27,829 bases of DNA from an uncultured Nitrospiraceae bacterium (GCA_963727805.1 CAVSHF010000002.1:1-27829), one strand, 5' to 3'; shown: positions 11,472 to 25,599, counted from the first letter of the stretch. Notes: generated by a model not told the origin, from the letters alone. Program-made: numbers and translations.

Positions 11472-11964
11472 TATTCACTGGATGGCTATTACGCGGCAAG
11501 ATCTTTAATCTTGTCGGGTACATTTGCTGCACATAGCACAAAATAAATACTGATAAAGCAGCGATATCTATGTGCAAAAAGATGTCGAAAAAGAAAGGAT
11601 TGACGAACGTTATAGCTGATATTCAAGAAACCAAGGTGGGTCAAATATAAAGAGAATTTAGAATAATCTCCGGCATCATGCTCACACCCGGCGCCTCCAC
11701 TGCGTCACTCGTCGGGACCTACGATCGTTGCCCCGTGAAATATTGACTCCACCTCTAAAATCACCAAATCAGCTTGTGGCCTGCTTGCCTGTGTATTCTT
11801 CAGAATGCTGTCGATAGCTCTGCGAGTTATCAAAATACAACCGAGCAAGTTCTTTTGAGGTCAAGATAAGAAGGGCTGTGCCACTTTAGTTGACTAAAAC
11901 ACTCACAAATCTCTTTCAATGTCACCCCTATGGCATCAGAATAGATAGAAAATGTTTTGTTCAA

Positions 11965-12963
11965 TCACCTGAAAGTCTTCTGGCACTCCTTATATAGTTT
12001 TTCGGCTTCATCCTCGGACATTGGAACAATCGAGTTTGGGAAATAAAAATCCCTTTGCAACAGCTCCTTAATGTTACTTGTCGTAAGATAATGGAGAATC
12101 GTTCCGTCTTCGAGTTTTACTCCGCTGATAAATTGGCTCAATTTGATTGACCTTTCTTCCTCATCGAGTTCTTCATTGTGTGCATCCTTTATCGTTGCCG
12201 TTCCCTTACCCGCCGCAATGATCCCATAGCCGTTATGATACAGGAAAATGAAAGACTTGTTCATCCACTCTCCGATGATTCCTCTGCGGTCTCCATAGAT
12301 CGCGGCCTTTTTATGCTTGATCATGTCCAAATATGCCTCCGGATAATGAGTCTGGCAAGTGTTGATCCAGCAATTGTATGAATTCTGAGGACAGAAAAGT
12401 TCGTTCGACAATTCGAAGTATCTCTTGCCGGCAACTTCATAGAAACGATAGAAGTATTCTTCTATGTCGACCCCAGATTTTCTCCAGTACTTGGCGATCG
12501 TTCCTGTGTATTCAGAGGATGAGTGTGATATTAAAATAGTTTTTTGTCTCTTATTGAATTCGGTTAAGTCAATCCTATATCCGTAATGCTGCTCAAATGC
12601 ATCTATCAGTTCATTGTCCTGAGGAAAGCACTTCTTGAAATGATTGTTCATTTCGTTGTAACGCCAATAGGAGAAATGTTGGGCATAGCCCAATGCCTGG
12701 TAGACCTTGCCACGATCATAATGTCCATCTACCTTCAATTCGAAGACGACCAGGTCTCCGCTGCTATTCAGAGCAAATAAATCTGCTTCGCTTTGAAACG
12801 ATCGTTCATTTCCAAAGACCAGATATTCAGGGAATAGGATGTCTCCGATTATCTCTTTGAGGTAGTTCTCCAGATTCTTTTCGCTCTCTCCGAGCGAATG
12901 GACAATATTCATCGCTAAAACCGGCTTAAACCCCTTGGACTTATCATCCATCTCGAATAGCAT
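11965..12963 (-). CDS. NucS/EndoMS-like PD-(D/E)XK nuclease with probable EVE/PUA-like C-terminal domain
   Basis: EKNLENYL...EADLFALNSSGDLVVFELK...VYQALGYA nuclease motif. C-terminal IFLYHNGYGIIAAGK resembles the EVE core. Strong SD. Confidence 0.65.
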   Translation of the reverse strand: MLFEMDDKSKGFKPVLAMNIVHSLGESEKNLENYLKEIIGDILFPEYLVFGNERSFQSEADLFALNSSGDLVVFELKVDGHYDRGKVYQALGYAQHFSYWRYNEMNNHFKKCFPQDNELIDAFEQHYGYRIDLTEFNKRQKTILISHSSSEYTGTIAKYWRKSGVDIEEYFYRFYEVAGKRYFELSNELFCPQNSYNCWINTCQTHYPEAYLDMIKHKKAAIYGDRRGIIGEWMNKSFIFLYHNGYGIIAAGKGTATIKDAHNEELDEEERSIKLSQFISGVKLEDGTILHYLTTSNIKELLQRDFYFPNSIVPMSEDEAEKLYKECQKTFR

Positions 12964-13111: not shown

Positions 13112-13501
13112 TTATTTATTTGATATTTCCCCCTCTTCAATAAACTCATTGTGTTCAGTCGTTTTTAGGAATTTTAATATATCTTTTGCGGCTTTGCCAC
13201 CGATTTTTCTTATCGCCATAATGGCTTCTTCCTGTATAGATATGTCGTCGTCATACAGAGCTATCGATTGCAGAAGAGGCAGCGCCTTCTTGATTTTTCT
13301 TTTTCCGATAGCACCCAATGCCTCATAGACCAGAGTAATTTCGGAGCTTTGAAGCATTTCAAGCAACTCCTGCTCCTCATAGGCTGCCGCGTTTTTCACT
13401 CCTTCATCAAAAGCAACCGTCGTCCTTTGAACTTTCGGGTGCTGGTCAGGTACGTAAGATTCATAGTCGGCTTTGGTTGGATATTCTTTATCGTCAGTCA
13501 T
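13112..13501 (-). CDS. HEAT-repeat (PBS-lyase-like) protein
   Basis: EALGAIGKRKIKKALPLLQSIALYDDDISIQEEAIMAIRKIGGKAAKDIL, two HEAT-like units. Confidence 0.75.
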   Translation of the reverse strand: MTDDKEYPTKADYESYVPDQHPKVQRTTVAFDEGVKNAAAYEEQELLEMLQSSEITLVYEALGAIGKRKIKKALPLLQSIALYDDDISIQEEAIMAIRKIGGKAAKDILKFLKTTEHNEFIEEGEISNK

Positions 13502-13506
13502 ACTTC

Positions 13507-13542
13507 ACTATAGAATAAATCACTGCCAGCATCCTGGCAGCG
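13507..13542 (-). promoter_or_regulatory. Putative WYL box 1 plus -10 element
   Basis: CACTGCCA-gcatcc-TGGCAGCG (13521-13542). Minus strand reads TGGCAG-tgatttattc-TATAGT, then 5 nt to the ATG of the HEAT gene. Confidence 0.7.
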
Positions 13543-13795
13543 GCGAACAACTTTTCACGTCCATGAATCATCGAAAAGATATTCTTCCAATTTTATTGAA
13601 TCAATAACGAGAAACGATTTATCACTTCGCAAAGAGCAACTGCCATGGTACTAGCGTCATATATGATATTATTCATAATACATTGGGCTTGATCGTTAGC
13701 GCAGCAGGAGTTGTAAGCGCCCTGGCAGGTTATTTTTCCGGAAATTATCGTATCAGCGACGACTAGTTAACAATATATTATATGGAGGTGAAACA

Positions 13796-14397
13796 GTGGG
13801 CATTTCTTACTTAAAACATCGCAGTTGGGCGAATTGGTCGCGCGACGAGCGTTTTTTTTGCGCAGTGCTGTTTGAGTACGCACGAAAGGACCCCGGCGCA
13901 TTCGCCAGATACCTCATCACTCAGGCGCGTTGTCCTTTCGATCTGTCTAAGCGGCCTCTTAAGCTGTCGCAGGATGAGACTGGGATCTTGGATATGAAGT
14001 CTGCTTCTACCGTGACTTCCTCTGGCCATCCCAAAAGACTGCCCGCCAGGATGGGTATCCTGCAAAAAGGACATTTGACCTTTGCCTTTTTGGCGAAAAG
14101 GCTATCATCATCATAGAAGCTAAGGTATTCCAGCGATTCGAAGTTGACCAGAATCGAGATTTTGAGAATGACCGTAAACTGATCAAGCGGCTTCTCGGCT
14201 CGGATTCATTTGAGGTTTGCGTGGTTGCGCTTGCTTCCTCGAAGTACTTCTCGAACGCTAAGTCCTATGCGAAAACAGAATCTCTGAAGGTGTTCGACGC
14301 CGCTATCACGTGGTCCGATGTTGCAACACACTATGGCAGTGATAAGCTGCTCTTCCGGGCAGAGGCTCTATACAAGATGGAAAGGAACAGCTGTTAA
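13796..14397 (+). CDS. PD-(D/E)XK nuclease-like protein; frameshift near 13975
   Basis: SD GGAGGTG before GTG 13796. After a 1-nt shift the frame continues DWDLGYEVCFYRDFLW...KRTFDLCLFGEKAIIIIEAKVFQ...YKMERNSC* (TAA 14395-14397), giving a D...ExK motif. Confidence 0.65.
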
Positions 14398-14476
14398 CAG
14401 ACCCTGTCTAATAAGCGCGGGCAGGAGACAAGCCCGGCCTGCAACCTTTTGCCAAACATTAGTGCAGGTATACTCA

Positions 14477-15960
14477 TTAAATCGATCTCATGCTGTCCAA
14501 TATTTTCACCATCGCGAATGTATCCAATTTGCAGTAATCAAGAAGTGCCTTTCGTATTGCTAATTTTTCAGACTCCTCGGTTGATTTCTCAGTTTGAAAT
14601 AAGCATCCACGGCCATACCGCCGTTTTGGATTTCACAGTCACTATATTTAAGGTCAGAGACCAATGAGGGCAGGACGTACTTAATCGAAGAGGACCCTTT
14701 CATATCCGGCTTGTAGACAACCTTTCTTCTGAAGGGTTCGGCAAAGATCTCTAATATTATCAACAATCTGCTGTAACAGTTTTTGCTTCTTGGGGAACCA
14801 ATCTCCTAAAGAATTAAGAATAGTTTTTTCGAAGCTGGTATAGACGACGATGCAAGACTTCTTAGGAATAATTCGTAACAGGTTCTGCAGCAACTCTTCC
14901 CTAGAATCTATAGTCGGATCACCCAGGTACTCGAAATGCTCTGGCTCGGCGCCTTTTTTTCCTATAATATGAATCGAAAACTGGAATGGCACCTGCTGGT
15001 ATGGCCTGATTCCGTCATAGGCAGGCACTGCTGTTGTATAGGTCTCAAAGTCTAGGAATACCATTGGGTGCCATAGTGAGTCCAGAAACTGTTTACATTA
15101 GTCTTATCAACTCAGGATTTTCCGTCTATATGGGCTGCAACCTGAAGCCTCTGTGAGCCATTGAGGATCTCCAGCGGTATGTCGGCCAATCTGATCGTCC
15201 CTTGCCTATATAGATCAAAAGTGTTCACTCCTCTTCCTTTTAGCGAGAACACCGAGTCTTCCGGTAAGTGTTTCAAGCAGTGACCCATAAAATCACATCC
15301 ATAAGGATCCTTGCAATGCTCACCGATATCAATGACGGGTTCGGAGCCAGTAAGCATTTTCTTCATCTTTTTAATCTCTTTTTCAACCTTCTCCTGCAAA
15401 CCCAATACTGCTTTTGTAACATCAACGATCGTGAATAGTTCACTAAGATTTATATCGCCGTGTCGCTCGTATTCGTTGTTGATGTGGATGACGTGCGCTT
15501 TGCCAACGGGCAGGCCCGCTTTCGACATAAGATTGTACTGGATGGCAACATTGTCCAGATACACATCTTTCACATCGGTAGATGACTTCACCTCATAGAG
15601 ATTCCAGCGTCCTCTTGTCTTCTTAATGATATCGGCCCGCGCCATAACACCATCGTGTTCAATAGCCGCTTCATAAAGTATTGTGGCGCCGGATGCAAGG
15701 GCATCTTCAGTCATGCAGAGCTGCTCAGGCAACTCATAGTCGCTGCTGGTTGCCAGCACTCCGCCTGGGAAAAGTTCTTGGGCTAGTTCACCGACTTCGT
15801 GACCTTGCGAAAACCTCATCAACAGGTCTGTAGAAAGCTCATCCCTAAGTTCGGGATGGTACTTCTGCAGATAGAGGGATTTATGACATTGAAGCCCTCT
15901 AATGTAAAGGGATTTGCTCAGACCTGTCTTCTGGTGCTCGATATTTGTTTCACTCATCAT
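14477..15960 (-). pseudogene. DUF2779-domain protein (N-terminal PD-(D/E)XK/Cas4-like + RNase H-like domain), interrupted about 4 times
   Basis: LSKSLYIRGLQCHKSLYL, ARADII, EVKSST, HCKDPYGCDFMGHC, FLDFET, RPYQQVPFQFSIH, GSSSIKYVLP, ALLDYCKLDTFAM occur across frames. TGA at 15112-15114 plus shifts near 15093, 14744 and 14585. Confidence 0.85.
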
Positions 15961-15991
15961 ATTCTCCTGATAATTCAGTATCTATTTGAAT

Positions 15992-16917
15992 TTATTTATT
16001 CTTATTAGCTGCTGCTGTAAGCTCATTATTGAGCTCCTTTCTTAAGGACATCGGGGAAATCACCTCGACATGAGGTGACCAGCCCAAGAGCCACTTGAGC
16101 AGACCAAAGCTGTCCTTAGCCTGGAAACTTATCTCAATACTTCCGTCGGTAAGTATCTCACTCTGCTGGCCCGATACCCACTGCCTTCTCTGGATCAGTT
16201 CGACCACCCCGACGTCAAAACGCAGGACCACATCTATTTCTTCCCCATCAAGCCAGGGGCCGAACACCGGAACTGGTTGACTTGCCCCATTGTCAGTCCT
16301 TCGGGGATAGTAGCGGTTGATCATCTTTAAATCAAGTATCCGGTCCAGCGCAAGGACTCTGAACTCCTCGTTATCGTGGCAGAAACCCCGCAGATACCAG
16401 AATGAGTCAGAAAAGAAAATATAGTATGGATCTACATCTCTCCTGACTTCTTGCCCGAGGAGGATGATGCGTACAGAAGATTAACGGTCTTGCCCTCGTT
16501 GATTGCCAAGTGCAGGATTTCCAGATATTCCTTAATCTTAGGCGGAGATTTATATATAGGGAGGATAATGCTTTGTCGGGTGCTTTTCTTCTTTGACTTC
16601 AGCTTGGTTTCGAGGGATTCGAGATTCTGTTCAAGAGATGTCCCGAAATTCTTAAGAATTCCTTTGGCAAGGGCGATTGTCAACGACTCTGCATCACTTA
16701 GTTCCGGCTTGCTGATAGAAAATCCCTCTTCGAAGACGTAACTCTCCTTCTGCTTATCGTATATTATGCGAATATTGGCGCGCCTCAGGATATCAACGTA
16801 CCGGAATACGCTGCGCTCGGAAATGCCGAAGTCATTCATCAGAGAGTATTTCGTCACCTTCTCTTTCCTGTCGATCTTTCGAACAATATCCAGCATCATA
16901 TCGAACTTAGATGACAT
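15992..16917 (-). CDS. HTH-WYL-WCX transcriptional regulator (PafB/DriD/YafY-like); frameshift near 16440
   Basis: N-terminal wHTH (FGISERSVFRYVDILRRA). After the shift: RDVDPYYIFFSDSFWYLRGFCHDNEEFRVLALDRI (WYL). C-terminal WLLGWSPHVEVISPMSLR (WCX). SD AGGAGG. Confidence 0.92.
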
Positions 16918-16977
16918 TTAGCCTCCTATTATCAGAAAAAGCCTCTTCCCCTTATGTTTTGCTTAATTCCTGTACTT

Positions 16978-17022
16978 ATAATACACGTACTCACTGCCAG
17001 ATGTCTGGCAGTGAGTACGTGT
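16978..17022 (-). promoter_or_regulatory. Putative WYL box 2 (autoregulatory) within a perfect 19-bp-arm palindrome, plus -10 element
   Basis: ACACGTACTCACTGCCAGA-tg-TCTGGCAGTGAGTACGTGT (16983-17022). Minus strand reads TGGCAG-tgagtacgtg-TATTAT, ~60 nt upstream of the WYL ATG. Confidence 0.8.
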
Positions 17023-17079
17023 GATATTCGGGTGACGCATTCAAGATTGCCGGATGCATTGTGGTCCTCTTGGAACCTC

Positions 17080-18674
17080 CTAAAACAGCCTCCTGCTTTT
17101 CTTGAACAACATGCTTATTGGTAGGAGTGCTTCGCGCAAAATTTCTGTCATTTGCTCATTTTGTGAATCATAAGCAAGGGAAAGCAGCTTTACGTTCTGC
17201 TGAAACTGCGTGAACTGATACGGATCCAGTTTCAGCAATTGCAGCTTAATATCCGACTCGATATCTTTATCTACTTTACTGGTTATTATCCATTCATTGA
17301 CCAGCGCCATTTGCATGGCATCGTTTGCAAAACTCAAATTTATATCTACATGAAAGAACGGATCAATGGTAAATGCCGGGATACGCCCGCCTGCGAAAAA
17401 GGCCAGGCCCCGGTATTGCCTGAAACTCTTGATCAGCAAATTACCGATCCACTCTGGCAGAGACGGGCGTCCCAGATAAGCGAAATGGCAGTCATCCACA
17501 ACGATTATCACATCATTGGTTGCAGCTGCTCTCTCGAAAAATTCATTATTCATTTTTTTTATCTCACGATGTCCCTCCATCGAAAGAGCGCTTAGATGCA
17601 TCTCCATTACATTTCGCTTTAACCGCGCGGCGGCAGCATAAGCTACTATTGAACGACGATCGGGCCTATCTCCCCAAAGCATTACCTTTAACCCTTTTAC
17701 GGAGTCATCGTTGCAATCTACGGCTTCCGTTTCAAGCCTCTGTGCAATCCGGATCAGCGAATAGAATTTACGGTTAGCGAGTTCAGGCAATTTCAGGCTT
17801 TCAGGGCCATCTTTCGGCTTGATAACTTTATAATATTTTTGATCTACTCCAATTTCCATGCTCTGCAGTTTTGCCCCATATTCCAGGTCTTCATGAGTTA
17901 GCACGAGCTGATTGTTATCTCTTTCAAAAACCCTATGCAGAGCAGCGATAACAGAATTTTTTATATATCCACCTGTAAGCAAATACTTTTGTGCGAGGCT
18001 TCTGAAATCAATATCCCGGTCACAGGCTATGCGCTCCGGTATATGCACTTTCCAAAGCTTTTGCGCATTTCTTCGTCCGGAACCGGCAGCTCAATCTTTA
18101 AACTTACCCTACGATCAAATGACTTTCCAACCCTTTCGGGGTAATTAGTAGCCAATATCACCATTCCATCGCTCTCTTCGAGTTCATTGAGCAGTGTATC
18201 GTATTCAGTTGTTCGTTCATCCATGAATCGGTCGCATTCGTCAATGAATACAATGCCACTCTTTTCTTTGGCCAGTTTGAACAGCTCTTCTATTGCGTGG
18301 TCCGAATATCCGCCTGGTCGGTCAAACCTGATGCCTTGCTCTCCTTTCAGTCCGAAAAGCGGCTTTCCCATAATTCTTGAGATGGACCGGGCCAATAGGG
18401 TCTTACCTGTGCCCGGGCGACCATATACCATGATAGTCGTGCCTCGCCCGTAAGTGATCAGACGATCGATTCCGAGCTCTGAAAATCCCCGTTTTACCAA
18501 ATCATGGTTTCGAATGAATAACAGAACTTTCCCCTTGATGTCGGAAGACATCACCATATTATTTAGTTCATTGTTAGCGGACATTACATCCGTCGGGGAA
18601 ATAGTTTCACAATACTGATCTTCCATATGCCGGCTGCTTCCATTGCCTCCGTTGCCTCTGTCTGCTGGAATCAT
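17080..18674 (-). CDS. Tandem AAA+ ATPase (active D1, degenerate D2); frameshift in the A-run at 18059-18062
   Basis: D1: YGRPGTGKT, VFIDECD, LATNYPERVGKSFDRRV. Adding one A restores RKKLWKVHIP...LTGGYIKNSV. D2: MLWGDRPDRRS (no Walker A Lys), IIVVDD. Confidence 0.88.
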
Positions 18675-18686
18675 GATCTCTTTCTC

Positions 18687-19238
18687 CTATTTGGCGGAAT
18701 ATACGCCATCGGCGATTCCGTACTGGATGGCCTCAGCAGGTGTGAGCCAGGTATCGACATCCCTTAATAATAGCGTCTCGACTTCCTGCCGAGTCTGGAT
18801 ATTAGAATGGGATATATAGTGCTCAATAAGCCTCTCATGTAGAAAATCCTCCTCTTTCCTGCGCGCTATTAGTTCAGAATGGTTTCCCATGCTGATTGAG
18901 AAAAAGCGATGCGACAACAGCGATGTGCGTGGCGTAAGTATGCGATGGTCTTTGTTTCCAGACATAAAAATACCCAGAGCCATGGAAGCAACAAGTCCAA
19001 GCCCAGTAGTGTATACTGGCAGCGAAGACCATTCCATCATGTCAATAATTGCAAACCCTGCCGATATGTCCCCACCGCTTGAATTGATTATCATCTGAAT
19101 GTGGTCGGCCGGGCGTTCCAGATTGATTCTGATAATATCCCGGCATATTCTTTCAGCCGCCCCGCCATCTATTCCACCAGAAATGAAAATGATTCCGTAG
19201 TCCTCTGTCGACTTTCTCGAACTCTTCTCTTGTTCCAT
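18687..19238 (-). CDS. clpP: ClpP-family serine protease proteolytic subunit (divergent paralog)
   Basis: INSSGG, AGFAIIDMM, GLVASMA (catalytic Ser), LLSHR (His), RDVDTWLTPAEAIQYGIAD (Asp). SD AGGAGG. Confidence 0.92.
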   Translation of the reverse strand: MEQEKSSRKSTEDYGIIFISGGIDGGAAERICRDIIRINLERPADHIQMIINSSGGDISAGFAIIDMMEWSSLPVYTTGLGLVASMALGIFMSGNKDHRILTPRTSLLSHRFFSISMGNHSELIARRKEEDFLHERLIEHYISHSNIQTRQEVETLLLRDVDTWLTPAEAIQYGIADGVYSAK

Positions 19239-19283
19239 GCTATCCCTCCTGTGTTTGTAGTGATTTATTGAGCCTCTGATACA

Positions 19284-19319
19284 AGATTAATCAAACCCGC
19301 TGCCACAAGCTTGGCGGTG
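19284..19319 (-). promoter_or_regulatory. Putative WYL box 3 plus -10 element for the clpP-AAA operon
   Basis: CGCTGCCA-caagct-TGGCGGTG (19298-19319). Minus strand reads TGGCAG-cgggtttgat-TAATCT. Confidence 0.7.
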
Positions 19320-19363
19320 AAAAAAAATAACTATGGCTATATCGATTCTAGCCCAGTATCGCT

Positions 19364-19399
19364 GGCCGCCAGGCATCTGGCAGTGCCAAATGCGATTAT
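19364..19399 (+). promoter_or_regulatory. Putative WYL box 4 facing the DnaB-like gene
   Basis: GGCCGCCA-ggcatc-TGGCAGTG (19364-19385). Plus strand reads TGGCAG-tgccaaatgc-GATTAT (one mismatch to TAnnnT). Confidence 0.6.
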
Positions 19400-19522
19400 T
19401 TAGGCACGGATAAAGACGAGGGTCAAATAGAAAAGTAATCCTGCGCCTCTAACATTGGACACAATAATCAAGAGAATCGTCATACAAAGCTTCTGATATT
19501 AATAACTAACTAAAGGACGGCA

Positions 19523-20479
19523 GTGGATATGGTTGAACCGGAGACAGGCAACGTGGATTCCATTCGGGATGCAGTAAAAGATGCTTTCAAGATAGTAGAG
19601 GTTCTTCATGATATGAAAAAGTGTCACGGACTAAAGATTTTGTCGGGCTTTAAGCAACTAGATACCATCTTATCCGGGTTCTTCGTCGGCGATGTGTACG
19701 TGGTATGCGGAGAACCAGGAGTCGGCAAATCATCCTTCGTATACAGTATTGCAAGAAATCTTGCTGTAAAGATGAAGCCTCCAATAGCTTTGGCTTTATT
19801 TAGCTTAGACAAAACGCCGGATCATCTAGCTCTAAAACTTCTATGCGCTGAGGGAGAAACATCATACTGGGGAACGACGTCGGGCAATATAACAAGAGAC
19901 GATTGGCCCAAACTCACTAGCGCGGCAGGACGATTGGCGCAATCTCAAATTTATATAAATTATTCCAATATTGCATCGGCGCAAGATTTAATAAAGCAGA
20001 TCAGTAATCTGGTTGCTAGAAAGTCGAACATATCTCTTTTGATAATTGATTCTTTGCAAAATCTAGTGCCCGAAGACAAGGCAACGGCTTCCGAGTGCCT
20101 CAGAACTTTGAAAGAGACAGCCTTAAAACTAAGACTGCCTATTATTATCACAAGTAGTATTAATATGAAGAAATACCCGAGGAATAAAAACCCGATAGCT
20201 GCAGACCCTAATTATAGCGTGATCACAAAATATTCCGACGTAGTGCTGATATTGCGAAAAGGTGAATGCGAGACCTCACTTCCTTCCATCAAAGAGAGCC
20301 CTTCCTGCAGGTATCAGAATGCGCTGATAGCCAAGATGAAGATCGAAATAACTATCGCCCAGAAGACAAATGGCTTAACGGGGACCCTTTTTCTCGATTA
20401 CATGCCTCAGCATGGCGGGTTCGAGGACATGGATGAGAGACCGGATTCGGCACCAGTAGAATGGTCTGATGCGTATTAA
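19523..20479 (+). CDS. DnaB-like RecA-fold ATPase, C-terminal domain only, degenerate
   Basis: SGFKQLDTILSG, GEPGVGKS, FSLDK, DWPKLTSAAGRL, LLIIDSLQ, LKETALKLRLPII. No N-terminal primase-binding domain. Confidence 0.85.
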   Translation: MDMVEPETGNVDSIRDAVKDAFKIVEVLHDMKKCHGLKILSGFKQLDTILSGFFVGDVYVVCGEPGVGKSSFVYSIARNLAVKMKPPIALALFSLDKTPDHLALKLLCAEGETSYWGTTSGNITRDDWPKLTSAAGRLAQSQIYINYSNIASAQDLIKQISNLVARKSNISLLIIDSLQNLVPEDKATASECLRTLKETALKLRLPIIITSSINMKKYPRNKNPIAADPNYSVITKYSDVVLILRKGECETSLPSIKESPSCRYQNALIAKMKIEITIAQKTNGLTGTLFLDYMPQHGGFEDMDERPDSAPVEWSDAY

Positions 20480-20714: not shown

Positions 20715-21122
20715 CTATTTTAACCACTTACCTTCCGCGGCCTTATGTATGACTTTGTGAAGCACAGAACGATGGCACCGTTGCTCATCTTCACAGTAAC
20801 AACCCACGGCAATAGGACTTCTTTTTGCTATCTCAGAGAGCAGCAGTACTGACTGACGGGCATCTGTATAAGTCGCTAACTCCTTTTCATAGAGTTCAAA
20901 GAACTTGTTCTGATTGGCCTTATCATCAAAATTCCATTTCTTAACTTTATTAAGGAGTTTTCGGCTAGGTGCAACAGTAGGGAGCCAAACATCAAAATAA
21001 TCATGTTTGGCATAATCCTCCTTCTTAACCCCTCTCGGCAGGTATCGAACTGTGCCAACGCGCAAGCCCTCTCCTTCTTCTCTTGGAGTACCACATCGAT
21101 ATGTTTTCAGCTTCAAATTCAT
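20715..21122 (-). CDS. DUF488 (YeaO-like) family protein
   Basis: GLRVGTVRYLPRGVKKE...DVWLPTVAPSRKL...CYCEDEQRCHRSVL. Confidence 0.85.
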   Translation of the reverse strand: MNLKLKTYRCGTPREEGEGLRVGTVRYLPRGVKKEDYAKHDYFDVWLPTVAPSRKLLNKVKKWNFDDKANQNKFFELYEKELATYTDARQSVLLLSEIAKRSPIAVGCYCEDEQRCHRSVLHKVIHKAAEGKWLK

Positions 21123-21154
21123 TCTTCAGCCCCCGTTATTTTCAGCCTTATTCA

Positions 21155-22019
21155 TTACAGATACCTTTCACTTAGATACCGAATATACTCGCCGTGGTGA
21201 GACCGCCATTGACTCGCCAATTTAGCAATCAATTCCTGATATGTCAGCGAATGGAACTTGATTCCGTCTTGCTTTGCCACTTTCGTAAACTCTGTAATTT
21301 CATCCTGATGACATTTACCTTGTTCGCCAAGCACGTCGTACCACAGGTAAAGTAGTCGGAAACCACCCGCTCCAAATTGCCGCTTCAGACCGAGAACGTG
21401 CTTTATCAACTGCGCTGGGTGCAGATGCTTAAATTCATTGTCATCTGGTGAAATCCGTTCCGCAAAGGCTCTCAAACCAGGGATATCACTCCAAATATCA
21501 CCACAGTCCAGGTACTTTTGCTTAAGTCCACCGTGACTATACGCACCGTACGCTTCAGAAAACTTACATTCGATGGCAAACCGCTTATTTTTTGCCTAGG
21601 GCTCGTTGTGGATAACGACATCTATATTAGGGATGAAATCCAAAGCTGTCGCCGATCGGGTACTTCTCCTCGAACTGAATATCGCGGGAAATCTCCGATC
21701 CCTCACGGCAAAAGCCGCACGCCGCTGAGATAATGGGAACTGCCAAGATCGATTTCCAGTACTGGAATACATTCACGCCTAATGCCGAGGATGAGTGTAT
21801 AGCTTGCATTTTCCCAGGCATGCCGCAAGAACCTAGTTCGCCGCCATCTCCTTTGGAAAAGGAACTGCGCACCTCCGGAAGCAATGGTTGAAAGAGCTTG
21901 AAATCAAGGTCTGTGGTGTACGCAGGGCGACCACGATTCGCTCTGCTGCCGATGAGGTCTAAGCCCCGGTTCTTGGCCCATTCAGTTTGTTTAACCAGGA
22001 TGTATTGATATCCGTTCAT
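21155..22019 (-). pseudogene. Putative restriction endonuclease (PD-(D/E)XK, PGN_0703-like); frameshift near 21630 and in-frame TAG at 21596-21598
   Basis: KMQAIHSSSALGVNVF, IQFEEKYP, then in the shifted frame PNIDVVIH...FAIECKFSEAY, then HLHPAQLIKHVLGL...LLYLWYD...LTYQELI. Probable start ATG 22019. Confidence 0.75.
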
Positions 22020-22073
22020 CGTGCTTTTATTCCGAATGTCTGCCACATAATACATTGCTTTCCCATGCAATGC

Positions 22074-25000
22074 TTACCCTCCCCTCCTATTATCCTCAAA
22101 CATCTCTACTGGCATTGGATGCTGTAAATTCCAAACCATCTTGATAGGCCGCTCATCTTCGTATCTGACTAATTTCACAGGTCCAAGATAGGTAAACGGC
22201 ACCGTGACCCCGTTCCGCTTTTTTTGGTCACGGGCAAAAACTAAGATTGTATAGTCACGATTCACATGGTGAATAAGATTCTGGCCGGTTTCAGACTGTT
22301 GAGATGTCGTTGACTGCGACTCCCAGTGTAGTAGTTCCCTGCTAATCGGGTAATCAGCATACATGGTACTCGGGGAAAACTCCTTTTCAGTCTTCTGAAA
22401 GGTTATAGCAGGGCATAGGTTTTAAATTCCGAAAAATGAAACGATCCCACACCTGTTTGCCCAGCTGTCTCTAAGGTTGCCCGGCCAAAAACCGCCTGAA
22501 TCTCCTTGATCCCATAGTGGGCATGAAGTTCAAGTGGACAGGCAAAAGGCAAATCAGGTCTCCTGCCGCTAACCTCGGTTGTATCAAGCGCCCAAGCAAG
22601 TATCTCATCCAGATCGGACAAAATGGACGGATTTGTGGCTAGTCGGCGGAAGGCATCTTCAAGGGATGTTATGCCGAGATTGGTACCTTTATCTCCCCAG
22701 AGTCGGTAGTACAACATCATGACCGAGTCCCCTGCGAGTGCAATTGCCTCAGTAATAGCACCATTGGAGACTAGTTTAAGAACTTCGCGTAACAACGTGG
22801 CTTCTTTCGGCCCATTGATAAATACCGCCCGTATCAGGGTTTTCTTCAGCCTCGCCAGATCAGGGTCATCGGGTATCGAACCAAGCTGTGTCTTAGCTTT
22901 CCACCCAGACCACGTCTCACTAGCCAGAAGTACTTCCGGATCGTAATCGTGATAGCGAATGAAATTGCCAAAGGTCAGCACTTGTCCAGTTTCGCTCGTA
23001 AATGTCTGTAGCCTATCAGGCACCTGAGCGGCTAATCGGCCGAGGTTTTCCTTTATGTTCTCCAAGACGTACTGCCGCGAGAGGCGGTCAAGCTGAATGG
23101 AACAACCGGCCGGAAGATGGGGGAAATCGAGCTCCACTTCCTTGTCAATAGAATAGCGATGCCGTGGCATAAGCGCCTTGAGCTTTGTGTCGGACCGGTA
23201 TCTTCGGTGCGCCTGGCCGACAAAATCGAGCACTGTAAGGCAATCTTTTCCAGGAGCATGGCGCAAGCCTCGTCCCAGCTGCTGAAGGAAGACGGTCAGG
23301 CTTTCGGTGGGTCGGAGGAAGAGAACGGTGTTCACCTCGGGCACGTCGACACCTTCACTGAGTTTGTCGACAGTGAATAGAAAAGTGAGCGTTCCGTTTT
23401 TTAGGTCGGTAAGCAAATTCTGACATTGTTCATCGTCAACCCCAGATACAAAGGCACCCGATGGGATCCTCATCTGCGTGAACTGGTTAGCCATGAAGAC
23501 GGCATGTTTGATAGTGACACAGAAACCAATTCCCTTGACGGTGTTCAGGTCAGACTCATAGCGATTAAGTGCCTCCACAATGGCATTAACTCGTTGATCT
23601 GCTCGTGCACGATCCAGCACATAGACTTTCTCTAAGGCCGCGGCATCATATTTGCCATTGCGCCAGAATTGGTCCTGATTTATGGCAATCGGATCGGCAA
23701 CCCCGAAATAATGGAATGGGCACAGGAGCTTCTCCTCCAACGCCTCAGGCAAGCGTATCTCAGCGGCAAAGCGATTACCAAAGTCGGCCGCTACGTTGTC
23801 GCCGTCCATACGCTCTGGTGTGGCCGTCAGACCGAGGAGTATTTTCGGGGTGAAGTTATCGAAGATTGGCCTATAGCTGTTAGCAGTACCGTGATGTGCT
23901 TCATCGACCACGATGTAGTCGTAGAAATCCTCACCGACCTGCTCCCACAAGCGTCTGCTTGTAAGCATTCCAACAGAGCAAAACAGGTGTTCGAGGCGGT
24001 TGGCCTCATAAGGACCGACTAATAGCTCACCAAAATTTTGGTCACGCAATACATTACTGAAGATCGCCTGTGCCTGCTGAAGAATCTGCTGACGGTGGGC
24101 GATGTAAAGGAGTCGAACCTGCTGTTGTTTCTTTTCGAAGAATTGCTTGAAGTCAAAGGCCGCAACAACGGTCTTGCCGGTACCGGTAGCTGCTATTACT
24201 AAGTTACGCCAGCGGCCATGCGTGTTACGCTCCCGTTCCAGTGCCTCAAGAATGCGCTCCTGAAATGGGTGAGGCCTAAGATCAAAGAAGACTGCCGGTC
24301 CATTTGTTCTGGTATTGCGAGCTCGATCAATAGCAGTTCGAAAGAGTGTCGGATTTTCGGGATCAAAAGGTACAAACTCCCGACTGTTCCAGTAGGTCTC
24401 AAACTCGATGCTAAATTTCTCTAGGATGTGCCCCATGTCCTGGGCAGTTACTTTAAGATTCCATTCTAGCCCGCTTGTAATGGCTGCATGGGACATATTG
24501 GACGATCCAATATAGGCCGTGGAGAATCCGCTGTTGCGCCTAAAGTGGTAAGCCTTGGCATGAAGCCGAGTTCGCTCGATATCATATGAGACGCGTACTT
24601 CTACATTAGGCATATGAGCTAACCATTCCACAGCCGGAGCATCGGATGCCCCCATGTAGGAGGTGGTAATGAGACGGACCGGGACATTACGATCGCGAAG
24701 ATCCTCAAATGTTGATATCAATAGGCGCAGTCCTGACCATTTTATGAATGAGACCAGGATATCCACTGCATCGGCAGAACGCATCTCAGCTTGCAACTCA
24801 TGTGAAAGTTGTGGTTCCTGGGGAGAGCCGGTAAAAAGACTGCTTTCCACTATCGGAGTGTGGGGGCGAGTAATGCCTGACGTACCATAATTCGGAGGAG
24901 TGATTTCCAGGAGCACCGGTTTTGCGGCAGGTACCAGTCGATGCTTTTCAAAGTGGTTCCTGACCGGCTCTTTGGCAACCTGCTCTAGAATCAGGTTGCA

Positions 25001-25201
25001 CAGACCCAGTCGTCTTTCAGGATCAGATTCTTCTCGTAAAGCCTGCTCGAGTACCTTTGCTACGAATGACGCATACCGGGCCGGCTGCTCCTCAGGTTCG
25101 ATTTTGCCAAAAACAGTCCTCAACTCCGGATGCTGGACTAGCGCATCTCGAAGGTATTCATCAAGAAGCTCCTCATATATTCCGTGAGCAAAATGCTTCA
25201 T
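22074..25201 (-). CDS. PLD nuclease-SF2 helicase-DUF3427 fusion (SauUSI-like type IV restriction enzyme); frameshift near 22405
   Basis: LHAKAY...YIGSSNMS (PLD HxK), ATGTGKT, VVDEAHH, GLTATPER, LQQLGRGLR. The C-terminus continues after the shift as ITFQKTEKEFSPSTMYADYPISRELLHWESQS...FTYLG (DUF3427). Confidence 0.92.
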
Positions 25202-25599
25202 CTAGATAACCGAGACTCTGCTAGATACGATTCAATAACTGGTAGGTCAGCCTCAGCCCAATCGAGAGTGAGTAGTTCATCCGATGCTAACCAAGCCACG
25301 GCGGAATGTTCGTGAAGAATTATTTCTCCGGATTCTATAGAGCAAACAAAAGGATATAGTGTGATAGCAAAATCCGCGTAATTGTGGCTGCTATGTGGCA
25401 GGTGTTTCCCCACGCGAACACAAATGCCCAACTCCTCCACCAATTCACGCCGCAGGCACTCTTCCGCCGATTCGCCGGGATCTATCTTTCCACCAGGGAA
25501 CTCCCACTTAAGTGGCAAGCTCATGATGGCACTGCGTTGTGCAGTAAGCACTTTCCCACCATTTTCTATAATAGCGCATGCGACGTGAATATGCTTCAT
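25198..25599 (-). CDS. MutT/NudG-like NUDIX (d)NTP pyrophosphohydrolase
   Basis: WEFPGGKIDPGESAEECLRRELVEELGI Nudix box. ATGA overlap with the downstream helicase gene. Confidence 0.93.
   Translation of the reverse strand: MKHIHVACAIIENGGKVLTAQRSAIMSLPLKWEFPGGKIDPGESAEECLRRELVEELGICVRVGKHLPHSSHNYADFAITLYPFVCSIESGEIILHEHSAVAWLASDELLTLDWAEADLPVIESYLAESRLSR

Follow-up and report, generated by a model that had tools for sequence, protein, structure and literature searches.

The window analysed here is the whole 27,829-bp contig C2 of the 3.89-Mb, five-contig genome of an uncultured Nitrospiraceae bacterium (GCA_963727805.1, CAVSHF010000002.1:1-27829). Between positions 13,112 and 20,479 it carries six genes and, in the intergenic regions 5' of them, four 18-bp palindromic boxes, which together with the WYL regulator are the subject of this study. 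The genes encode a regulator with winged helix-turn-helix (wHTH), WYL and WCX domains, a DUF2779 protein, a ClpP-like protease and an AAA ATPase, a HEAT-repeat protein and a protein that corresponds to the C-terminal part of DnaB only (Table 1).

Table 1. Boxes and genes of the window and, in the last row, boxed genes at loci of relatives (nt, nucleotides; aa, amino acids)
Feature	Position	Strand	Basis or remark
Box 1 + 10-nt spacer + -10 hexamer TATAGT	13507..13540 (box 13523-13540; hexamer 13507-13512)	-	pattern search; orthologue-trained matrix
Box 2 + -10 hexamer TATTAT	16978..17022 (box 16994-17011; hexamer 16978-16983)	-	pattern search; comparison with G006
Box 3 + -10 hexamer TAATCT	19284..19317 (box 19300-19317; hexamer 19284-19289)	-	box and hexamer conserved in G006
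Box 4 + TG-n-GATTAT	19366..19399 (box 19366-19383; hexamer 19394-19399)	+	matching G006 box has GATCAT and fronts a HEAT gene
wHTH-WYL-WCX regulator	15992..16917	-	frameshifted once, near 16460; G006 orthologue intact and 78% identical
DUF2779 protein: Cas4-like PD-(D/E)xK + RNase H-like exonuclease domains	14477..15960	-	two frameshifts (near 15095 and 14745); intact in G006
AAA ATPase, first module intact, second degenerate	17080..18674	-	one frameshift near 18060; 528 aa in G006
ClpP-like protease, divergent, 183 aa	18687..19238	-	12 nt upstream of AAA gene; triad aligned to host ClpP
HEAT-repeat protein, 129 aa, likely leaderless	13112..13501	-	Pfam HEAT_2; ATG 5 nt past -10; no Shine-Dalgarno
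DnaB C-terminal-only protein	19529..20479	+	Walker A and B retained; no N-terminal domain, catalytic Glu, sensor Gln or Arg finger
Boxed genes with twin-arginine-like N-termini	L047:12070-12609+, L111:3915-4481+, L130:2198-3355-, L027:9401-9964+, L030:2940-3974-, L038:9652-10635+, L061:7739-8815+		

The initial annotation of this DNA had described a CTGCCA-N6-TGGCAG-type dyad at four sites, all intergenic and 5' of a gene, with a TAnnnT hexamer exactly 10 nt from the gene-proximal TGGCAG at three of them, GATTAT at the fourth and no canonical -35. All of this is confirmed, except that the box starts (13523, 16994, 19300 and 19366) had been placed 2 nt too far left; the best match to TTGACA at a spacer of 16-19 nt reaches 2, 4, 1 and 3 of 6 positions for boxes 1 to 4, respectively. 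Boxes 3 and 4 are each one base short of the strict family consensus. With up to one mismatch, TGCCA-N6-TGGCA has 10 matches in the window (0.86 expected), a number reached by none of 100 shuffles, and the stricter pattern C[CT]GCCA-N6-TGGC[AG]G is found four times in the window (0.014 expected per window) and twice in the other 3,865,688 bases. In the host genome, a matrix trained on orthologues gives box 1 the highest score of all and box 2 the third highest, and the two remaining high scorers are intragenic. The pattern was, however, picked after the fact in this very window and the decisive support is therefore its conservation in other genomes.

An alignment of six WYL orthologues was used to fetch 160 loci, four of which were dropped as 5'-truncated matches; 132 were unique, and with at least 100 nt of upstream sequence required, 100 close (at least 35% identical) and 30 distant WYL genes were kept. 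An unguided count of dyads upstream of these genes has TGACA-N6 and TGCCA-N6 among its top motifs. Within 200 nt upstream, TG[ACT]CA-N6-TG[AGT]CA is present at 75 of the 100 close and 4 of the 30 distant WYL genes and in none of 389 coding windows, and any other spacer between 3 and 10 occurs at no more than 2 of the 100 close genes. Nine of the 30 distant genes (loci among L070-L105) have the same half-sites at N5 spacing, which suggests a sister operator. After thinning of the orthologues to less than 70% identity, 35 of 45 are boxed, with the hexamer at register 10 in 28 cases toward the gene and in 6 away from it. Further strict boxes in the WYL loci are mostly intergenic too (79/85), though coding DNA is 3.8 times larger. 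Thus, both expectations of the initial annotation, that the box is kept beside orthologous WYL genes and that it is commoner outside coding DNA, hold. The close loci with a named phylum are mostly from Thermodesulfobacteriota (15) and Nitrospirota (13), with 59 of 90 having no phylum assigned, and the WYL clade is unevenly spread, occurring in 7 of the 68 genomes of the family. One of the relatives, G006, belongs to the same genus and has a 70%-identical stretch across window positions 14472-19327. Its boxes lie before the WYL gene, before the ClpP gene and, as a third back-to-back one, before a HEAT gene, with a fourth before an open reading frame (ORF) of 172 aa; boxes 2 to 4 of the window are retained, and the counterpart of box 4 fronts the HEAT gene rather than a DnaB-like gene. 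G355, a genome outside the training set, has two boxes, one before and one after its WYL gene, with the hexamer at 11.

The box stands in a fixed register to a -10 element. At the 75 boxed WYL promoters TANNNT is found 10 nt past the box in 60 cases and in 10 on the far side. For another 63 boxes the nearest gene start, and not the -10, set the orientation: the hexamer is at 10 toward the gene in 37/63 and on the far side in 9, and an ATG is at offset 22-23, that is 6-7 nt past the hexamer, in 20/63 with 4 on the far side. All ten boxed HEAT genes have their ATG at offset 21-23 (5-7 nt past the hexamer), and the HEAT gene of the window has no GGA-type ribosome-binding site, whereas the other five genes do. 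These positions fit leaderless starts and, as the -10 was not used to find them, back the earlier prediction that transcription begins about 6-7 nt past each hexamer. Leaderless starts at HEAT genes fall where register 10 predicts the start site and the box would therefore span about -40 to -23. With start sites placed in this way, the promoters have a palindromic operator over the -35/-26 positions, at fixed distance to the -10 and with no -35, as at DriD, SiwR and DdaA promoters: DriD binds sites that overlap the -35 and keep a constant distance to the -10 (PMC13004042), and SiwR requires its -26 region (PMC10693628). The 10-nt spacer between the -26 element and TANNNT is also that of the PafBC motif, tGTCgg-N10-tA-N3-T (PMC8635444). 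A link between TGACA-type left halves and a canonical second promoter, apparent in raw counts (33/41 vs 8/28), is uncertain, as it comes down to two independent pairs on supported branches (p ~1).

Some further sites of the window resemble the boxes. A perfect palindrome (16983-17022) with arms of 18 bp and a hairpin z of -6.1 surrounds box 2, 58 nt past the stop codon of the AAA gene; this extension is absent from G006 and could be a terminator of the ClpP-AAA transcript or a local rearrangement. A degenerate box at 13640-13675, with a good left half, a poor right half and TATTAT at 9 nt, precedes a frameshifted ORF (13796-14397, plus strand) with an EAK motif reminiscent of PD-(D/E)xK nucleases; neither this ORF nor the 172-aa ORF of G006 matches a Pfam family. 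Weaker intergenic consensus matches at 2850-2867 and 11919-11936 lack a hexamer at register 10 and are of doubtful function.

In G006 the regulator is an intact ORF of 332 aa, and HTH_11, WYL and WCX domains are found both in this orthologue and in the two pieces of the window gene. Among 90 orthologues, R35 and R39, an Arg pair four residues apart in the recognition helix, are invariant, as are Y149, W174, R177, R187 and D192 of the WYL domain; R193 of the pocket is also kept. Ranked by profile, PafBC (2e-22) and DriD (3e-17) stand above BrxR and CapW (4e-10 or weaker), and a predicted structure of low confidence, in which helices at 75-91, 93-107 and 126-141 may lie between HTH and WYL, has DriD as best fold match. 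There is one WYL gene in the genome and the palindrome is full, in contrast to the two subunits (or fused tandem) and single half-site of PafBC. Relatives of the WYL or HEAT protein are absent from the viral contigs searched, and the plasmid matches are distant (at most 34% among the ten best listed); an origin from phage or plasmid was thus dismissed.

Could the palindrome be read by a host-wide factor, or be a cassette recombination site, rather than belong to the WYL protein? Cassette order and content vary between loci, different genes standing behind the same box, and no HTH residue of the orthologues follows the A/C variant of the box, as either alternative would allow. However, boxes cluster at WYL loci, with a background level elsewhere in the genome, and are in fixed register to -10 elements and ATGs, and the distant WYL genes carry the related N5 spacing. 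In 61 relatives searched for the box plus hexamer, the six genomes that have a close WYL give one to four matches apiece, and apart from two these lie on the WYL contig close to the gene; the other 55 have 20 matches, against 12 for a reversed control over all 61. Genome G003 (98% complete) has no match to the WYL protein and no box before its two HEAT genes and its DUF2779 gene, although this is one genome. We regard a host factor or recombination site as very improbable and the box as very probably the operator of the WYL protein, judging from conservation and position. In G003 (C2, ~2773300-2778500; L221, L222), the two HEAT genes flank the DUF2779 gene and have a common upstream motif, GAAAAATTCG-N7-AAACGGTT, directly before the ATG, possibly the site of a different regulator or sigma factor. 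On contig C160 of G010 (L223, 8446-10766), three boxes lie near a DUF2779 gene and a 702-aa ORF while the WYL gene is on a different contig: either the two pieces adjoin or control acts over a distance.

The regulon is local and its cargo variable. The initial annotation had treated the four outputs of the window as one module; the boxes are real, but the genes behind them form no fixed system, with ClpP orthologues in 2 and the DnaB-like protein in 1 of 317 genomes of the order. The commonest cargo is DUF2779, present in 23 loci, in 11 of them with its own box and in many others directly behind the WYL gene; within the family, 6 of 68 genomes have DUF2779, five of which are among the seven with this WYL clade. 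The intact G006 protein has 500 aa, and D110, E123, K125, four Cys, D304, E306, D405 and D480 are invariant in 15 intact homologues. These residues match the described fusion of a Cas4-like nuclease with an RNase H-like exonuclease (PMC13621843, PMC3985635), and the descriptions of DUF2779 in these two sources draw no link to WYL. HEAT genes occur in ten WYL loci and are boxed in all ten; the family comprises 105 proteins, and the window protein is modelled as all-helical (predicted local distance difference test, pLDDT, 80), with Foldseek matching only alphaRep-type repeats at E above 0.01 and the structure atlas only generic HEAT clusters.

The ClpP-like protein aligns with the host ClpP at all three residues of the triad (Ser, His and Asp) that the protease of ClpXP and ClpAP has. 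Among the 317 genomes its only orthologue is that of G006 (183 aa). A ClpP/AAA protease pair, as annotated initially, has this part in its favour, but the ATPase is not of ClpX or ClpA type and a working pair is only presumed: the best models for the ATPase are IteA and CDC48, far below cut-off, and ClpX matches over Walker A only (E 3e-4). Besides the G006 protein and the window fragment, the relatives listed include one full-length protein (35%). IetAS, which consists of the IetA ATPase beside an S8 protease, was rejected as an identity: the AAA protein matches IetA in part, and its neighbour is ClpP-like and gives no PADLOC hit.

A replicative DnaB needs, beyond the Walker motifs, its N-terminal domain, the catalytic Glu, the sensor Gln and the K-x-R finger. 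In comparison with the host DnaB all of these are missing from the window protein, in agreement with its earlier reading as a pseudo-DnaB. The other 316 genomes have no close match, but four metagenomic orthologues (56-69%) make up a small family with it; all four have kept the Walker motifs and are without the same parts as the window protein, which is therefore a maintained dead fragment and not a case of fresh decay. G010 has a DnaB C-terminal-only gene beside its WYL gene in which Glu and Gln are retained.

In relatives, the box also fronts ARPP-1 (6/6 loci), beta-flower (5/5 loci), WG-repeat, FtsZ-derived, MraZ, receiver, Tpt1/KptA, DSP-type phosphatase, HD and metallophosphoesterase genes. 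Several boxed genes (Table 1) encode a twin-arginine-like N-terminus joined to an FtsZ C-terminal, FtsZ GTPase, MraZ or WG-repeat domain; a simple twin-arginine pattern is found in 5 of the 104 boxed genes, compared with 6 of 900 others, and misses the two FtsZ_C cases. It is conceivable, if unlikely, that the box-plus--10 unit of about 35 bp is a portable promoter which collects nucleases and crippled copies of housekeeping genes (a dead DnaB C-terminal domain, pieces of FtsZ, MraZ, receiver domains on their own, a divergent ClpP) as WYL-triggered, dominant-negative or decoy brakes on replication and division. The islands would then form a dormancy or defence programme of modular build, activated by WYL, for which our searches gave no named counterpart.

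The initial annotation had noted a frameshift in the WYL gene; this stands, but AAA and DUF2779 are frameshifted too, all by single bases in comparison with G006. Frame changes affect two of three scored loci on the window contig plus WYL and none of 68 conserved loci on other contigs, and the contig has further split genes. This would fit a regulon that is real in relatives and has decayed here by true mutation, a possibility that we consider doubtful: all four shifts are indels beside short runs or repeats, there is no in-frame nonsense codon in comparison with G006, catalytic motifs and all boxes are intact and the contig is small and separate, as a poorly polished piece would be. An assembly error is the likelier cause from this pattern, and in the living cell the genes are probably intact. 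Reads of one sequencing run cover boxes 3 and 4 without difference and leave the breaks uncovered; the run may not be independent of the assembly.

We propose that TG[A/C]CA-N6-TG[G/T]CA is read by a homodimer of the wHTH-WYL-WCX protein, each HTH contacting one half-site via the invariant Arg pair. The dimer would cover about -40 to -23 and the gene-proximal half would fall on -26, the position used by PafB and SiwR; binding of a ligand in the WYL domain would lead to recruitment of the housekeeping RNA polymerase to otherwise weak promoters. One signal could thereby turn on ClpP-AAA, WYL-DUF2779 (which combines positive feedback with a predicted two-domain nuclease), the leaderless HEAT gene and the enzymatically dead DnaB fragment. 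Their most likely purpose would be that DUF2779 clears damaged or foreign nucleic acid while the pseudo-DnaB, a predicted poison or decoy of the host hexamer, slows replication. That the protein acts as an activator appears probable from promoter geometry and protein relationship; damage or phage as the signal is slightly favoured. As a whole, a DriD/SiwR-like activator of local cassettes that responds to nucleic-acid damage through this operator is a fairly likely explanation.

Several observations weigh against it. The WYL loci are kin and were chosen by their WYL gene, for 25 of the 100 orthologues a box is missing from the 200 nt upstream (some of them are second in an operon) and the fold model is poor (pLDDT 71; predicted template modelling score, pTM, 0.33). 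No boxed output is above the cut-off of a named family in NCBIfam, and PADLOC matches are partial. Matches off the islands are near background and those inspected mostly intragenic, and recA, which like other chromosomal repair genes would have an operator in a global damage regulon, has no box within 450 nt (best, 3 mismatches); no classical repair gene therefore ties the regulon to DNA damage and a genome-wide SOS-like regulon was rejected. Where F-R-x-D-R has its first Arg, 81 of 90 orthologues have Ala, with Arg not among the four commonest residues, and the second Arg is kept in 85, so that the Arg pair of sensors of single-stranded DNA (ssDNA) is incomplete. Finally, the box covers the -35 region, where a repressor could sit as well, and a second TANNNT is found at register 5, at 17 nt to the left half-site, in 43 of 75 WYL promoters; it would form a canonical promoter occluded by the box.

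The position over the -35 and the second hexamer would be explained by a CapW/BrxR-like repressor over the -35 of extended -10 promoters that is released by ssDNA. TG at -15/-14 is common (33/75), so the promoters could run without an activator, and the island carries defence-like genes. Yet a repressor needs no fixed register and 10-11 nt are kept at WYL and target promoters alike; register 5 is rare at targets (11/63). Furthermore, RWHVR, the repressor motif of CapW/BrxR (PMC11662680), is absent, the consensus being F/I-W-Y-L-R-G, and CapW/BrxR rank below DriD/PafBC by sequence and fold. Repression is thus improbable and activation remains our preferred reading.

The Arg-to-Ala change and the boxless recA would also fit if the box is the site of a WYL activator with another ligand, such as RNA ends, ADP-ribose products or cyclic nucleotides, in RNA or ADP-ribose repair or a general stress response. 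ARPP-1, Tpt1/KptA, phosphatases, HD and metallophosphoesterase genes behind the box agree with this, and WYL-ARPP gene pairs are known from ADP-ribose conflict systems (PMC9503650). On the other hand, the commonest cargo is a Cas4-like/exonuclease protein, the other pocket residues are kept and DdaA, which has the same Ala, still activates damage genes (PMC12392091, PMC13010146). Such a ligand seems to us about as improbable as repression; given the Arg-to-Ala change the signal of the proposed damage-responsive activator is nevertheless uncertain, and that of DdaA may differ. A host without LexA was also considered: the Pfam LexA DNA-binding model matched nothing, yet there are two LexA-like HTH plus S24 proteins (G000:C3:2171639 and C5:888014), both of which it misses.

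The rest of the contig resembles a defence-rich island with AddAB-like genes. Unboxed defence-like genes at 11965-12963 and 20715-25599 encode a PDC-S11-like protein, DUF488-N3a, a split REase-ARP, a split PLD-helicase-DUF3427 type IV restriction enzyme and a PDC-S07 Nudix protein. Positions 8-2288 are a tandem duplication of about 1.15 kb with DUF4258 and MerR ORFs (96.3% identity, 34 substitutions, 4 gap openings).

No paper found in our literature search joins WYL, Nitrospirota and a regulon, DUF2779 is named in seven papers, and the box motif is unreported in titles and abstracts; supplements and subscription journals were outside this search and the motif may be listed elsewhere. Within the searches made, the WYL clade, its operator, the palindrome in the register of PafBC and the exchangeable, separately promoted and often leaderless cassettes are new. 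For an unstudied clade of WYL proteins they supply an operator, the geometry of its promoters and a list of targets, and they do so in Nitrospirota and Thermodesulfobacteriota, whose regulation is hardly mapped. The box can serve as a search tag, which makes DUF2779, leaderless HEAT, dead DnaB, ARPP-1, beta-flower, WG-repeat and FtsZ/MraZ offshoots candidates for co-regulated stress or defence genes.

Among known systems, the WYL-ARPP/ARG-phosphatase neighbourhoods (PMC9503650) share ARPP-1, phosphatases and Tpt1 with the boxed genes of relatives; in contrast, they are proposed to be repressed by WYL, their published description gives no operator in the part dealing with them, and the window has no ARPP or ARG gene. 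CapW/BrxR are likewise wHTH-WYL-WCX regulators with a palindromic site in a defence-rich island, but have the RWHVR motif, match less well in sequence and fold and differ from the multiple promoters in fixed, activator-like register found here. DdaA of Moraxellaceae is a homodimeric WYL activator of damage and defence genes with the palindrome CGWCA-N5-TGWCG and the first Arg changed to Ala (PMC12392091); unlike the local protein, with N6 centred near -31 and no box at recA, it is a global regulator that includes recA, and its motif is about 50 bp upstream of the start. SiwR of Mycobacterium smegmatis is a local homodimeric WYL activator with an imperfect palindrome between -35 and -10 and an R38/R42 pair (PMC10693628); it controls one adjacent dinB-like operon, whereas the loci described here have up to five boxed promoters with variable cargo and the WYL gene itself is boxed. 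PafBC of Actinobacteria has the same register (tGTCgg-N10-tA-N3-T vs TG[G/T]CAG-N10-TANNNT) and reads the -26 element with R46/R50 (PMC8635444), but it is a heterodimer on one half-site with about 150 genes, while here there is a single gene, the palindrome is full and the regulon is local. The top fold match is DriD of Caulobacter crescentus, a homodimeric activator (wHTH, three-helix bundle, WYL, WCX) with a palindrome over the -35 position and no -35 (PMC13004042). Its site differs (ATACGAC-N7-GTCGTAT vs TG[A/C]CA-N6-TG[G/T]CA), as do its pocket motif (WRLDR vs FALDR; about 23% identity overall) and its targets, damage genes scattered over the chromosome instead of a local cassette cluster. 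An activator, as in the initial annotation, is favoured in that PafBC and DriD are closest by sequence; the kind of switch was already known from DriD, SiwR and DdaA; a full palindrome in the PafBC register would link the sigma adaptation of PafBC with the mode of DriD.

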